From a bacterium (GTDB lineage: Bacteria > Acidobacteriota > Blastocatellia > HR10), in NCBI GenBank assembly GCA_041640655.1, contig JBEPZV010000027.1:1-34947 (forward strand): a stretch of 34,947 nt of DNA, read 5' to 3'. How positions within the stretch are numbered: the first letter of the stretch is position 1; each line of letters starts with the position of its first letter. Of this stretch, positions 18,627 through 21,756 are shown in pieces. The position numbers were made by a program, and so were the translations under genes. The notes under the pieces are model-generated. The model did not search any database. It saw only the letters and a program-made list of their open reading frames with translations, and was not told where the DNA came from.

Positions 18627-19240
18627 GGGAGCCCCTCGCCGAAGACCGCAGCGAGTTTCGCCTGAAGCGCCCGCCGCCCCTGATGAAGATGAGCTTTGAC
18701 GGTATTGACGGAGAGGCCCATGATGGTCGCGATCTCCTGAACGGATTGTTCCTTCACGATTCGGAGGTACAGACAGCGGCGCATCTGCGGCGGCAGCTCC
18801 TCGAGGGCCTCGCGCAGCTTCTCCAACTTCTCCTTCTGCAGCACTCTCTCCATTGGATCGGCTCCACCGGTCACGACGTGCCGGGCCTCGCGATCGGACT
18901 CCGACGCGTGCGCCTGCTGCTCTTCCAGCGGGACCTGGGCGACGGCCCGCTTTTTCGCCCCTCGCCGCTCCATCTCGTTGATGTAGACATTCTTCGCGAT
19001 CCGATATAGCCATAACTCGAATTGGGCGGCCTCCCGCAGCTCGCCCAACCCTCTATAGACAGAAAAAAACGCCTCCTGGGTGAGGTCGCGCGCATCTTCC
19101 GACGACAACCCCTTTCGGCAGAAGAAGCGATAGAGCTGGCCGTAGTAGCGCTCGAACAGCAGGCGGAAGTTCTCTTCCCTGTCCCGCCCCTGTTGCAATT
19201 CCCGGATGATCACCGCCGTCGGCTTCTCCGACCCGATCAT
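18623..19240 (-). CDS. ECF-family RNA polymerase sigma factor (sigma 2)
   Basis: FRLLFERYY..EDARDLTQEAF..WLYRIAKN; region 4 LPPQMRRCL..EIATIMGLSVNTVKAHLHQGR. Confidence 0.93.
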   Translation of the reverse strand: MIGSEKPTAVIIRELQQGRDREENFRLLFERYYGQLYRFFCRKGLSSEDARDLTQEAFFSVYRGLGELREAAQFELWLYRIAKNVYINEMERRGAKKRAVAQVPLEEQQAHASESDREARHVVTGGADPMERVLQKEKLEKLREALEELPPQMRRCLYLRIVKEQSVQEIATIMGLSVNTVKAHLHQGRRALQAKLAAVFGEGLP

Positions 19241-19276
19241 GCTCAGGATTATACTCCTCCGAGGCCCACAACGTCA

Positions 19277-19362
19277 TCACGGCCCTACCGTGAGGGGCGC
19301 GCGCTGGCCAGGAGAAATGTGGACGTTTTGAAATTCCCGCTCATCCATCCAGGCGGAGAAGA
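19277..19362 (-). pseudogene. 3' fragment of a DUF2442-like gene interrupted by the IS607 element
   Basis: Reads VFSAWMDEREFQNVHISPG..., in frame with the 5' fragment once 19363-21066 is removed. Confidence 0.65.
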
Positions 19363-19545
19363 CCGTTGCCGGGACCATAGAAATCTATCCCCGACATCCG
19401 CCCGTTGCCGGGCGGAGGCGCCGGTCTTACGCGCAAGCCGCGCTGCCGGCTTCCCGCTTCCTCCAGGACTGCCTGCCCACTCCAGGTCTTACGTCCCGTC
19501 CACGGGCGTTTTCCGTCTCCGGTCCACTCCCGGCGACGGCGGCCG
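19345..19545 (-). ncRNA. Putative TnpB omega/reRNA scaffold plus flank-derived guide
   Basis: Overlaps the tnpB 3' end and the right end (hairpin TCCGCCCG-gcaa-CGGGCGGA; ends ...GGCAACGG). The 5' boundary is approximate. Confidence 0.55.
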
Positions 19546-20692
19546 CAAGGACCGCAAGGTTGCGTGCCGCGTTCTCGTCCCGATCCAGGACCAGACCGCA
19601 AGCACCGCACCGAAACGTGCGCTCCCACAGGGGCAACTTCTCCTTCACCGCTCCGCAGTGGGAGCACGTCTTGCTGCTCGGCCAGAACCTGTCCGCCTCC
19701 ACCAGGCGCGATCCGTACCACACGCACTTGTACGCCAGCATCCTACGCAACTCGGCCGGTGCAGCGTCCGCAACTGCCCGCGCCAGGCAGCGGTTCCGCC
19801 TCATCCCCGCCACGCAGAGCCGCTCCACCACGATGACGCCGTAGGTTCGCGCCAGGCGCGTCGTGAGCTTGTTCCAGACATCACGCCGGATGTTGGCCAC
19901 GCGGCTGTGGGCACGCGCAAGCCTCCGCCTGGTCTCCTCATAGTTCTGACTCCCCCGCTTCCGGCGCCCAAGCTCCCGGTTCAGACGCGCGATCCTGCGC
20001 AGCGCGGCCTTGAGCGGGCGCGGGTTTTCCACCCGCTCACCCGTCGAGAGGACGGCCAGGTGTCGCAGCCCGGCGTCCACGCCTACCGCGACGTCGGGGA
20101 ACCTGGGGGCTTTCGGCTCGCGCTCCACCTCGCAGGTGAAACTCACAAACCACCGCCCGCCTTCATGGGAGACCGTCGCTCGCAGGATGCGGGCTTTCCC
20201 CGCTTCGATCTTTTCCACGAGCGCCGTCGTCAGTTCATACGTTCGCACTCGTCCGATCCGAGGGAGGACGACGGGGCTTTTGTCATCCACCCGGATCGCC
20301 CCGGTGGTGAAGCACACCGACTCCCGGCCCCGCCCCTTCTTCCGCAAGCGGGGGAAGCCTACCCGGCGACCGCTGCGCCTGCCTTTCCTGCTGTCGGACC
20401 AGTTCTTCAGGGCCGCCGCCAGGCCCGCAAGCCCCGACGAGTACGCCTCCTTTGAGTTCTCCCGCCACCAGGGAGCAGCCGTCTCCTTCGCCCGGTTCCA
20501 TTCCCGCCGCAAGGCAGGAAGCGTCCAGGGCACCTCCACATCCTCGCCCCGCTTGCGGGCTTCCAACCGCTCCTTCACCAGCACCAGCCCCCAGTTGAAG
20601 GCGAAGCGCCGGGCGCCCACATGCGAAGCCAGCGCCCGCGCGGCGCGGGGGGACGGATCAAGGGCAAAGCGGTATGCCTGATGCACGATCAT
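19427..20692 (-). CDS. tnpB: IS607-family RNA-guided endonuclease TnpB
   Basis: N-terminal AYRFALDP..GARRFAFNW; RuvC D (VGVDAG), E (IVVERL) and D (DRDENAARN); zinc finger CSHC..CGAC. Confidence 0.95.
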   Translation of the reverse strand: MIVHQAYRFALDPSPRAARALASHVGARRFAFNWGLVLVKERLEARKRGEDVEVPWTLPALRREWNRAKETAAPWWRENSKEAYSSGLAGLAAALKNWSDSRKGRRSGRRVGFPRLRKKGRGRESVCFTTGAIRVDDKSPVVLPRIGRVRTYELTTALVEKIEAGKARILRATVSHEGGRWFVSFTCEVEREPKAPRFPDVAVGVDAGLRHLAVLSTGERVENPRPLKAALRRIARLNRELGRRKRGSQNYEETRRRLARAHSRVANIRRDVWNKLTTRLARTYGVIVVERLCVAGMRRNRCLARAVADAAPAELRRMLAYKCVWYGSRLVEADRFWPSSKTCSHCGAVKEKLPLWERTFRCGACGLVLDRDENAARNLAVLAAAVAGSGPETENARGRDVRPGVGRQSWRKREAGSAACA

Positions 20693-21009
20693 GGCTCACA
20701 AGCCGCCTTCACGGCCCTCTCCGCCCGCCGCCTGGCGGAGCGCCGCCCGTACAGCCGGGCGCAGAAGCTTGTCAGGACCTCGATCATGTCCTGCACGAGA
20801 TCGTCCTTTTATCTCGGTCGGCTCCATCACAACGAGCCTCCGCCCGGACGCGGCCAAGGCGGCCTCAATGTACTCCGCTCCGGTACGTCCACCAGGATGG
20901 TGCCCGTCGGTGTCTGGCGGGCAGGTACCGGGAGCTTGCCCCGCCTCCACCACAGCCAGGCGGTCTTGTACGAGATGCCGTTGGCCCGTGCCCAGGCTGA
21001 GAGTTTCAT
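20689..21009 (-). pseudogene. tnpA: IS607 serine-recombinase transposase TnpA with internal deletion and frameshift
   Basis: MKLSAWARANGISYKTAWLWWRRGKLP (MerR-like HTH) jumps out of frame to EYIEAALAASGRRLVV; a +1 A precedes DDLVQDMIEVLTSFCARLYGRR. The catalytic YARVS region is absent. Confidence 0.88.
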
Positions 21010-21066
21010 GGAAGCACCATACCACGAAATGGACCATATTTCTATAAAAGCCTCAGCAGCTACGAA

Positions 21067-21175
21067 CCCCCTTGCCGACGAGGCCGGAGAGATCCACGAC
21101 GCCTTCCACGCCATCCGAGAACTTGACCCACAGTCTATAGTTCTCCAGCGGTTTGACTTCGATCGGTCTCGGCAT
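21067..21175 (-). pseudogene. 5' fragment of a DUF2442-like (antitoxin-type) gene
   Basis: MPRPIEVKPLENYRLWVKFSDGVEGVVDLSGLVGKG with RBS AAGAGGGAG. Confidence 0.75.
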
Positions 21176-21305
21176 AGATCTCCCTCTTGTCACTGTCCGC
21201 GATGCTTTATTCCACTATGCTCACGCCTACAACCCACTCGCTCCCCCGACACCATCGGAGACGACCCATTCAGGAAGCGAAGGACGCGCATCGTCCCCGG
21301 CAACC

Positions 21306-21377
21306 GCCTAACGGCCTGCGCTTCACCTGCGCCATGAAGCGCGGTGGAGCAGCGTCTGGGGCAAGCCCGTGTTGGAT
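21306..21377 (-). other. Degenerate integron attC-like recombination site
   Basis: Starts 5 nt after the hicA stop: R'' ATCCAAC (RYYYAAC) ... R' GTTAGGC (GTTRRRY); 72-bp imperfect inverted repeat. Confidence 0.55.
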
Positions 21378-21382
21378 GGCAC

Positions 21383-21526
21383 CTAGGCTCGAAGCAACTT
21401 GCGAAACTCTTCAACTTCTCGCCACATATGCAGATGACTGCCCTTCTGTCGCTTCTTCACGAAGCCGGCGCGTTCCAGCGCTCTCACTAACTTCTGACCG
21501 TCTATGCGGGGAAGTTTCTCACTCAT
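21383..21526 (-). pseudogene. hicA: HicA toxin with in-frame internal deletion (47 aa)
   Basis: MSEKLPRIDGQKLVRALERAGFVKKRQKGSHLHMWRE is joined directly to VEEFRKLL; the usual VPxH...GTLxxIL segment is absent. ATGA overlap with hicB. Confidence 0.75.
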
Positions 21527-21756
21527 GAAGCCACCGGTACCGAGAGACGGGTAATGAACACCGGTTCGCGCTCCACCGGCACCGGCTCGCCATCTTCAAG
21601 CATGCTTTGGACATGAAGCTCGATGGCTTCCAGGATGTTCGCACGGACCTCATCAATCGTGTCGCCAAAGGTGTGGCAACCGGGCAGGGCGGGCACGTAT
21701 GCGTGGAATCCCTGCTCGTCAGGTTCAATCACGACGGTGAAGTGATAGATCGGCAT
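21523..21756 (-). CDS. hicB: HicB-family antitoxin
   Basis: FTVVIEPDEQGFHAYVPALPGCHTFGDTIDEVRANILEAIE; RBS GGAGGTG. Confidence 0.92.
   Translation of the reverse strand: MPIYHFTVVIEPDEQGFHAYVPALPGCHTFGDTIDEVRANILEAIELHVQSMLEDGEPVPVEREPVFITRLSVPVAS

Follow-up and report, generated by a model that had tools for sequence, protein, structure and literature searches.

A half-decayed IS607-family tnpB element in a DUF2442 gene, with a rebuilt target and a predicted guide RNA and G-rich TAM

In ISXfa1, an element of Xylella fastidiosa, tnpB follows the gene for the serine recombinase TnpA, and the guide RNA, a 144-nt scaffold plus a 17-nt guide, overlaps the 3′ end of tnpB and passes the right end of the element (Yoon et al. 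2023, 10.1101/2023.08.09.552727). Its TAM is GGG, not CGG, and because CGG precedes the right-end guide when the site is occupied, the element is not targeted by its own nuclease; for IS607 TnpA itself, the insertion sites are GGG or CGG (10.1101/2023.08.09.552727). ISFba1 and 22 other IS607 TnpBs are described with guide RNAs derived from RAGATH-18, and TAMs such as AGGAG and GAGGG adjoin the left end of IS607 elements (Ren et al. 2024, PMC11061315). The IS607-family IStrons of Clostridium botulinum leave scarless donor joints without target duplication, and their TnpB, with a predicted TAM of TGGG, cuts the vacant site and so retains the element (Zedaveinyte et al. 2023, 10.1101/2023.11.20.567912). 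From the IS200/IS605 side, mutant data on the RuvC residues are available for the TnpB of ISDra2 (Karvelis et al. 2021, PMC8612924).

The element described here occupies positions 19363..21066 (1704 bp) of the window, by which we mean the whole stretch of 34,947 nucleotides that was analysed; its features all lie on the minus strand, and junction coordinates are window positions read along that strand. It resembles ISXfa1 as published in that tnpB follows a serine-recombinase tnpA, the predicted guide RNA overlaps the 3′ end of tnpB and passes the right end, the insertion site is GGG, and the scaffold is predicted to span about 145-160 nt against the 144 nt there. Unlike in ISXfa1, tnpA is dead here, the element is present in a single copy, and both the TAM and the RNA ends are predicted. 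With the ISFba1 group it shares an IS607-type TnpB and a G-rich motif beside the left end, here the predicted TAM, whereas its RNA belongs to the Rfam family Transposase-2 and not to RAGATH-18. With the IStrons it shares the scarless mode of joining, the lack of a target duplication and a TnpB predicted to cut the vacant site; a group I intron, such as IStrons carry, was not found when the window was scanned with Rfam. ISDra2 TnpB is the closest solved natural structure (8bf8, 8exa, 8h1j), aligned over residues 2-409 with D191 and E278 conserved here; however, ISDra2 is mobilised by a Y1 transposase through single-stranded DNA, whereas the transposase remnant here is of the serine-recombinase type. 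The ISDra2 TAM is TTGAT. Like other tnpA-less derivatives of IS607, such as the related locus L079 and a decayed element on contig C1 of the same genome, the element has lost its transposase and kept tnpB, but unlike in those the wreck of tnpA is still readable, so that the order of events, insertion and then a 244-bp deletion, can be stated.

The element, with a G+C content of 67%, starts with TTCGTAGCTGCTGA at 21066, ends with ...CCCGGCAACGG at 19363, and has neither terminal inverted repeats nor a target duplication. It splits a DUF2442 gene whose 5′ part (21067..21175) runs from an ATG at 21175 to ...GGCAAGGGGG, the final base being the first base of the split codon, and whose 3′ part (19277..19362) continues beyond the element as TCTTCTCCGCCTGG... 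up to and including the TGA at 19279-19277. A GTG at 21193, upstream of the ATG, is also in frame with the 5′ part. When 19363-21066 is taken out (a join made in script only), a single open frame of 64 codons results, and this agrees with the earlier note, which had proposed that excision restores an in-frame DUF2442-like protein: identity with the N part is 83% in two intact homologues, P0002 (70 aa) and P0003 (74 aa), which pass the junction spot without a gap (GKGVFSAW and GKGVFAAW). The N part alone, the only DUF2442 match in its own genome, scores 29 bits against PF10387 (DUF2442; cut-off 23.9, profile 2-30), and the 27-aa C part alone matches P0003 with 59% identity over 22 residues (E 2.9e-9 in a two-sequence search). 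The Pfam DUF2442 match in P0003 extends over residues 5-54 and therefore covers the junction position; P0002 and P0003 have nothing that corresponds to the final ~10 residues of the restored frame.

GGT is common to both junctions, and shifting both cuts by -1 to +2 yields identical joined DNA, so the crossover is placed to GG(T) and no finer. The shared GG (plus T) and a GG join that rebuilds the gene with no extra bases are as expected of IS607, and the same note's premise that such elements join at GG without duplication thus holds for this target, which is rebuilt exactly from the shared GG. Judging by both junctions, the element entered the DUF2442 gene by recombination at GG, and the target was not duplicated.

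The ends so placed are shared with relatives. Homology to related elements breaks at query positions 96-98 and 1804-1809, the element itself being query 101-1804; independent elements in other genomes lose homology 0-5 nt from the predicted ends, and breakpoints coincide with the same ends in up to seven such elements. The right-end terminus AACGG (19363..19367), whose GG is the crossover core and whose CGG stands before the DNA matching the guide when the site is occupied, is kept in all 13 right ends aligned, with the following base varying (T in six, C in five, A and G in one each). The non-coding left end (57 nt, 21010..21066) carries the word A[A/G]CTGCTG near its tip, conserved in an alignment with L033, L036, L037, L039 and L041 and present in L079 too. 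The reading of the element as one that ends in ...AACGG and follows a G run thus extends to its relatives (AACGG in 13/13, GGG at the left flank in 6/7). The earlier note had proposed comparing the ends of other copies; the genome itself has a single full copy, and the ends compared here are those of related, non-identical elements.

Between the left end and tnpB stand the remains of tnpA. An ORF of 60 codons (20830..21009, stop at 20827-20829) retains ~45 native N-terminal residues of the helix-turn-helix, with the remainder out of frame; the junction of a 244-bp deletion lies at 20881..20882, and with this segment the catalytic serine region (approximately residues 47-121 of the 187-aa sister protein) was lost. 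The 3′ remnant (20692..20811) preserves 38 native C-terminal codons, its stop overlapping the tnpB start (ATGA), and an A run near 20810 bears a 1-bp insertion. The N-terminal remnant and residues 1-46 of L033 TnpA, which is intact, are 87% identical. The NCBIfam profile NF033518 (transpos_IS607, cut-off 110) matches the remnants in two pieces (profile 2-32, 18 bits; 161-187, 38.7 bits), whereas a Pfam scan of them gave no match; as only these pieces below the cut-off remain, the element is a defective derivative and not an autonomous member of IS607. Full IS607 transposases are encoded by the sister elements L033 (194 bits) and L039 (196 bits) under the same profile and cut-off. The segment deleted here is present in the DNA alignment of L033, L039 and L041, and this ~240-bp stretch is kept in all five relatives with the left end and the tnpB start in view; in a sixth, L079, just 179 nt separate the two. 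The 244-bp deletion and the 1-bp insertion came after insertion of the element. Neither of two weak NF033518 matches in the assembly (89.8% complete) rose above the cut-off, and no intact IS607 transposase was found there. Without the catalytic region and with no intact transposase found, this copy cannot excise by itself, and the vacant allele at which its guide would be aimed is therefore no longer made in cis.

In contrast to the two lesions in tnpA, tnpB (19427..20692) is intact, with 421 codons plus stop, the RuvC triad D206/E290/D372 and a zinc finger (CSHC at 343, CGAC at 362). Its product scores 510.7 bits against NF038280 (IS607_TnpB, cut-off 350) and contains the Pfam domains OrfB_IS605, Cas12f1-like_TNB and HTH_OrfB_IS605. 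Against the ISDra2 TnpB structure 8bf8 it aligns over residues 2-409 (E 3.1e-58), better than against the 384-aa chain 8iaz (E 7.3e-34), and its D206 and E290 correspond in the alignment to D191 and E278 of ISDra2, and its D372 to the second D of the DRDEN motif there (D361). Membership in IS200/IS605 was considered and rejected, as the protein stays below the cut-off of NF038281 (IS200_TnpB; 245.5 bits against 425) and what remains of the gene upstream belongs to the serine-recombinase type of IS607. The assignment to IS607 made from the letters alone accordingly stands on the TnpB score, on the tnpA remnants and on sister elements with full IS607 transposases. An attempt to derive the TAM from TAM-contacting residues was dropped as too indirect; by hand count, Q80 of ISDra2 aligns to a serine.

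The right end of the element is predicted to encode the scaffold of an omega/reRNA-type guide RNA (19363..19522), which overlaps the 3′ end of tnpB and is drawn from an alignment of 13 sequences. RNAalifold finds eight covarying helices from 19506 to 19368 with 43 pairs, 26 of them with compensatory changes on both sides and 96% of cells paired; none of 500 shuffles reached the observed values, and slid controls were 33-44% paired. A possible closing helix (19522-19520 with 19365-19363), which would fix the 5′ end of the scaffold, does not covary. An inspection by eye for a pseudoknot pairing the AACGG tail with a loop further upstream identified none; the sole candidate, helix 1, is not covarying. 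Within the scaffold, 19393..19460 matches the Rfam family RF03015, Transposase-2 (66 bits, gathering score 42.7, covering the whole 69-position model), as two hairpins, the second with a GNRA-type loop, and the match recurs at the same place in 13 of the 18 related loci scanned. Among the papers searched, Transposase-2 was nowhere linked to TnpB, nor did the motif name or accession appear.

In the 13-element alignment the flanks diverge beyond the scaffold end, and since conservation of the RNA ceases at the boundary of the element, the adjoining flank, TCTTCTCC..., should supply the guide. Both the RF03015 match and the halt of covariation at that boundary favour the prediction, already made in the earlier note, of a right-end RNA with the flanking DNA as guide. 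The predicted guide, and with it the target in the vacant allele, is 19343..19362, the 20 nt with which the right flank begins (TCTTCTCCGCCTGGATGGAT); by precedent the guide would have a length of 16-20 nt, that of ISXfa1 having 17 nt. At the other end, a run of five G (21067..21071) lies 5′ of the left end, its last two bases forming the GG crossover core and GGG(G) the predicted TAM. GGG precedes the left end in six of the seven elements compared, the exception being L039 with GGTGG; among aligned left flanks position -3 is G in six of seven and position -4 in all six in view, while positions -5 and beyond vary. Over the 27 nt that lie 46-72 nt ahead of the tnpA start, a run of at least three G occurs in 32/35 loci against 37% of 7000 control intervals, and one of at least four G in 22/35 loci against 10%. 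The G run that had been noted beside the left end is hence seen both here and in related elements. At this end the needs of the recombinase and those of TnpB are inseparable. In the rebuilt vacant site the target follows GGG(GG), and at the right end of the occupied site CGG stands in that place; because this is the pattern published for ISXfa1, a G-rich TAM and a guide beginning TCTTCTCCGCCTGGAT... are reasonable predictions, though not new in kind.

The genome itself holds one full copy and, on contig C1, a decayed IS607-like relative of 48% identity. No second match to the guide with an intact 5′ part was found in it; a 15-nt match to the guide region on another contig, C101 (E 0.27), misses the first three bases of the guide, falls in an unrelated reading frame and was set aside as chance. 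The element was not found in the 60 related genomes searched, where foreign DNA reached at best 71-90% identity over no more than 239 bp, and related, non-identical elements occupy other sites in other phyla. A scan of viral contigs gave 14 loci of at most 50% identity, which were not used further. In L033, the closest relative, tnpB appears broken, with only a 149-aa ORF, and decay is thus common in the clade.

The target is rebuilt through protein homologues only, the vacant allele not having been found as DNA in these searches. Across 20 related genomes, the right flank is matched only from the sigma-factor gene on (query 109 or 153) and never in the 3′ part of the DUF2442 gene. The left flank is matched only in HicA/HicB-like stretches elsewhere and never in the 5′ part. 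A 24-base stretch of the left flank, searched over metagenome contigs, met a single record, L114, which is occupied and identical down to the tnpA deletion. Contigs of four runs (X1-X4) over 18900-21500 contained no joint spanning the element; this says nothing on absence, because rare variants are lost from contigs and this DNA may itself derive from the runs. Left out of this comparison were seven runs with small shares (0.05-0.06) and three added ones in which the words were almost absent. In run X3, one contig agrees with the element exactly as far as 19363 and then continues with different letters, which points to a second insertion context. Hot-spring labels on the runs fit the hot habitat that the earlier note had considered for the host.

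We regard the locus, with good confidence, as a single-copy, non-autonomous IS607 remnant with an intact tnpB and right-end RNA that would work by the mechanism published for the family. TnpB would bind an RNA made of the scaffold ending in AACGG and 16-20 nt of the right flank, and the complex would cut DNA in which the guide sequence follows GGG or GGGG, as it does in the DUF2442 allele without the insertion; the occupied copy would be spared because CGG stands before the target instead. In an intact element such cutting would drive repair from the occupied copy, and the element would be retained. Here, with the transposase dead, the nuclease would be left without a self-made target and could act solely on a vacant allele arriving from outside. 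Of the proposal that the guide is aimed at the empty allele, therefore, the match between flank guide and rebuilt allele stands, but the allele is not produced in cis.

That the whole element is an inert fossil, with tnpB and its RNA inactive and the frame open merely because the insertion is recent and in GC-rich, stop-poor DNA, is unlikely. In its favour, tnpA carries two lesions, the copy is single, the C1 element is decayed too, tnpB of L033 seems broken, and the base composition of the element is G+C-rich (67%). Yet neither lesion touches the 1266 bp of tnpB, both lying in the 375 bp ahead of it, an outcome of about 5% if two events struck at random, as we infer, and all catalytic and zinc-binding residues are kept, while the scaffold fits the covarying consensus with no helix broken. 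An intact tnpB without its transposase might also suggest that the host has co-opted the protein, for example as a TldR-type RNA-guided repressor, and such take-overs are described in the literature. This we consider very improbable, since all three RuvC residues are kept, the would-be guide is no more than the sequence beside the insertion and has no second match in the genome, and the 60 related genomes did not yield the element.

The boundaries and the TAM invite separate doubts. One join in three would be in frame by chance, and the vacant DNA allele was not found, so that the restored frame might be a coincidence and the real boundaries elsewhere; against the gap-free junction in two homologues, the agreement of breakpoints in up to seven elements and the terminus kept in 13/13, this has almost no plausibility left. 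It is harder to set aside, if still improbable, that the left-end G run reflects target choice by the recombinase only and that the true TAM is different or lies further upstream. IS607 TnpA inserts at GGG or CGG while the crossover strictly needs just GG, positions -5 and beyond vary, and other IS607 TnpBs are reported to need 5-nt motifs such as AGGAG (PMC11061315). However, AACGG on the right against GGG(G) on the left is the self/vacant distinction measured for ISXfa1, as published, and the G at -3 (6/7) and at -4 (all six in view) falls outside the dinucleotide core.

Taken as a remnant with an intact nuclease gene, this is an ordinary, half-decayed IS607-family tnpB element that matches the papers of 2023-2024, and its principle has been published since 2023. 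It serves as a clean worked example: a single insertion, set beside its relatives, is enough to read off the target, the guide and the likely TAM of an IS607 TnpB. It also provides, from a hot environment, a candidate for a compact nuclease whose predicted TAM is short and made of G only, an incremental gain, as heat-tolerant TnpBs have already been reported (10.1101/2023.03.06.531077). Further, across 14 elements of different phyla, it ties the Rfam motif Transposase-2, so far unannotated, to the predicted scaffold of the TnpB guide RNA. With chances that we place a little short of even, RF03015 may be the guide scaffold of a cross-phylum clade of IS607 TnpBs, found in MAGs of Bacillota, Chloroflexota, Deinococcota, Armatimonadota and Actinomycetota and ending in AACGG, with CGG in the occupied and GGG in the vacant state, and the 421-aa TnpB from hot-spring DNA may be active and heat-tolerant with a short GGG or GGGG TAM. 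Both readings, of the scaffold and of the heat-tolerant TnpB, would be new, if true.

The element lies within a DUF2442 gene, and both of its junctions can be read from the flanks. On the minus strand, the 5′ part of the gene runs from its ATG at 21175 to 21067 (last bases ...GGCAAGGGGG), followed by the 1704-bp element, from TTCGTAGCTGCTGA at 21066 to ...CCCGGCAACGG at 19363, and then by the right flank, the 3′ part of the gene, which opens TCTTCTCCGCCTGG... and reaches its TGA at 19279-19277. Joining the flanks without the element, a join computed in a script only, gives a single open frame of 64 codons. The N part matches Pfam DUF2442 (29 bits against a cut-off of 23.9) as the sole such match in its own genome, and a search with it recovered two intact homologues, P0002 (70 aa) and P0003 (74 aa, from a record named as a KSB1 MAG), each 83% identical to it. 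Both read GKGVF(S/A)AW without a gap over the junction position, and, since the Pfam match in P0003 covers residues 5-54, it crosses that position. In a two-sequence search, the C part alone (27 residues) aligned with P0003 at 59% over 22 residues (E 2.9e-9). Neither P0002 nor P0003 has an equivalent of the final ~10 residues of the restored frame. With this frame and the colinearity of both homologues over the junction, the earlier note was correct in observing that removal of the element rebuilds an in-frame DUF2442 protein. Because GGT stands at both junctions, cut points moved jointly by -1 to +2 yield identical joined DNA; the crossover is resolvable only to GG(T), matching the expectation for a dinucleotide-core serine recombinase.

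The DUF2442 gene is immediately preceded by a toxin-antitoxin pair within 21383-21756 on the minus strand, made up of a HicA-like gene (47 aa, truncated match) and a HicB-like gene (77 aa); on the other side of the DUF2442 gene are an ECF sigma factor and a zf-HC2 anti-sigma-like gene. The same-genus genomes searched at the locus have neither the HicA/HicB-like pair nor the DUF2442 gene at this place, and the patch therefore looks accessory. In metagenome run X3, a contig of a ~91%-identical relative (record 13) tracks the sigma-factor region as far as position 19278, which falls within the DUF2442 stop codon, and parts from it beyond that point; hence, the gene may sit at the edge of the patch. 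Its 3′ end may thus be an older insertion or deletion boundary, which, if real, would account for the tail of the restored protein differing from its homologues. Run X3 is one of four, labelled hot springs metagenome (three) and viral metagenome (one), that hold 98-100% of the window's words and are not independent of it, being possibly the source of its DNA.

In the own genome (128 contigs, 89.8% complete), the element occurs once in full, and contig C1 carries a relative 48% identical to it; a search of 60 related genomes found nothing close to it. A protein scan with TnpB over one genome per species returned 80 loci, the nearest (71-88% protein identity) in MAGs named Symbiobacterium thermophilum, Bacillota, Clostridiales, Meiothermus, Chloroflexota, and Armatimonadota. 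DNA homology to the relatives breaks off at query 96-98 and 1804-1809, the element being query 101-1804, and alignments of five left and seven right ends bear out these breakpoints. In 13 of 18 related loci, Rfam scanning placed the Transposase-2 motif at the 3′ end of tnpB; one of these, with its match cut by the locus end, was left out of the right-end set (the window and 12 loci). AACGG is the element terminus in 13/13, lying 30-45 nt past the motif, and the flanks diverge beyond it, the next base being T in six, C in five, A in one, and G in one. One X3 contig also agrees with the element exactly to 19363 and carries other DNA beyond.

The tnpA gene is wrecked. About 45 native helix-turn-helix residues remain at its N-terminus, with 87% identity to the TnpA of the sister element in L033, the closest relative; a 244-bp deletion (junction 20882/20881) has removed the catalytic-serine segment, and beyond it come a 1-bp insertion near 20810 and the native final 38 codons. 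DNA alignment shows the missing segment to be present in the related loci L033, L039, and L041, and the TnpA proteins of L033 and L039 pass the IS607 transposase model (194 and 196 bits). As the own genome, at 89.8% completeness, also has no IS607 transposase above cut-off, the window copy is a non-autonomous derivative. The earlier note's interpretation, with recombination at a GG core without target duplication and a TnpB guide taken from the flank, is sound in principle but describes an intact IS607 element, whereas this copy is without its transposase. L033 (78% TnpB identity) appears to show the opposite pattern of decay, with an intact tnpA (187 aa) and an apparently broken tnpB (longest in-frame ORF 149 aa). 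L079, from an Armatimonadota MAG record, has just 179 nt between its left-end motif (2322) and tnpB start (2501) and is a second, independent tnpA-less derivative within the clade.

The IS607-like C1 relative (C1:28736-30255, minus strand, 1520 bp; loci L002 and L003) interrupts a gene that we take to resemble 6-phosphogluconolactonase. Its tnpA is a frameshifted stub and its tnpB has a stop at the second codon; its ends follow the same logic, in that GAGGG stands 5′ of the left one and the right one terminates in AACGG. The site is vacant in the same-genus genomes G002 (L136) and G005 (L137), with flanks 92% and 90% identical, and both vacant sites have an extra 90 bp, so the C1 insertion was accompanied by a 90-bp target loss. 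In G002, where the segment itself was read, it is bounded by direct CGAAGG/T repeats; for G005 the comparison is of the 90-bp length only. The loss could reflect repeat slippage or an adjacent deletion made by the recombinase. A third, more distant TnpB-family match lies on contig C12 of the own genome (5906-6502; 84.7 bits, or 100.1 with its same-frame neighbour).

The TnpB of the window element (421 aa) scores 510.7 bits with NCBIfam IS607_TnpB (cut-off 350), falls below the IS200_TnpB cut-off (245 vs 425), and contains the Pfam domains HTH_OrfB_IS605, OrfB_IS605, and Cas12f1-like TNB. Its residues 2-409 align with ISDra2 TnpB (E 3.1e-58), D206, E290, and D372 occupy the RuvC positions, and the protein has both CxxC pairs; the ISDra2 residue aligned to D372 is presumably D361. 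In ISDra2 TnpB, D191A and E278A are dead mutants (Karvelis 2021, PMC8612924).

The sequence 5′ of the left end is GGGGG in the window and L033, GGGG in L036, L037, and L079, at least GGG in L041 (at a contig start), and GGTGG in L039, so that GGG precedes the left end in six of seven elements. In a survey of the window and 34 relatives (n=35; 4/38 loci dropped for too short an upstream sequence), the stretch 46-72 nt before the tnpA start has a run of at least three G in 32/35 loci, compared with 37% of 7000 control windows, and one of at least four in 22/35, compared with 10%. The shares of the recombinase and of TnpB in this G run are inseparable. Given GGG(G) at the left flank and the invariant AACGG right end, the target follows GGG(G) if vacant and CGG if occupied. 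The same contrast has been measured in ISXfa1, where GGG is cut and CGG spared, CGG borders the guide at the right end, and the majority of copies lie in GGG (Yoon et al., 10.1101/2023.08.09.552727). Other reports give the IS607-type TAMs AGGAG/GAGGG (Ren et al. 2024, PMC11061315) and a predicted TGGG (Zedaveinyte et al. 2023, 10.1101/2023.11.20.567912). These papers already describe the mechanism, where the TAM lies, its G-rich character, and the discrimination of GGG from CGG. On this precedent and the vacant/occupied flank pattern, the guide is predicted to be the right flank read downward from 19362 (first 20 nt TCTTCTCCGCCTGGATGGAT); no second guide match with an intact 5′ part occurs in the own genome.

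The right end also bears the marks of a conserved RNA. Rfam RF03015 (Transposase-2) matches 19460-19393 on the minus strand at 66 bits (threshold 42.7). The aligned final 180 nt of the 13 elements fold into nine helices with 43 pairs; 96% of cells are paired and 26 pairs show changes on both sides, values matched by 0/500 shuffles, and sliding the partners leaves only 33-44% pairing. The covarying helices (19506-19368, minus strand) overlap the tnpB stop at 19427-19429. The closing helix predicted for the putative 5′ end of the scaffold, of 19522-19520 with the terminal CGG, is invariant in the alignment. The predicted scaffold is of a size fitting the 144 nt measured for ISXfa1 (Yoon et al., 10.1101/2023.08.09.552727). 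A literature search, which did not extend to the supplements of the motif's first description, found no paper with the Transposase-2 name or accession. Transposase-2 may be the guide-RNA scaffold of this clade, a link that is perhaps unpublished.
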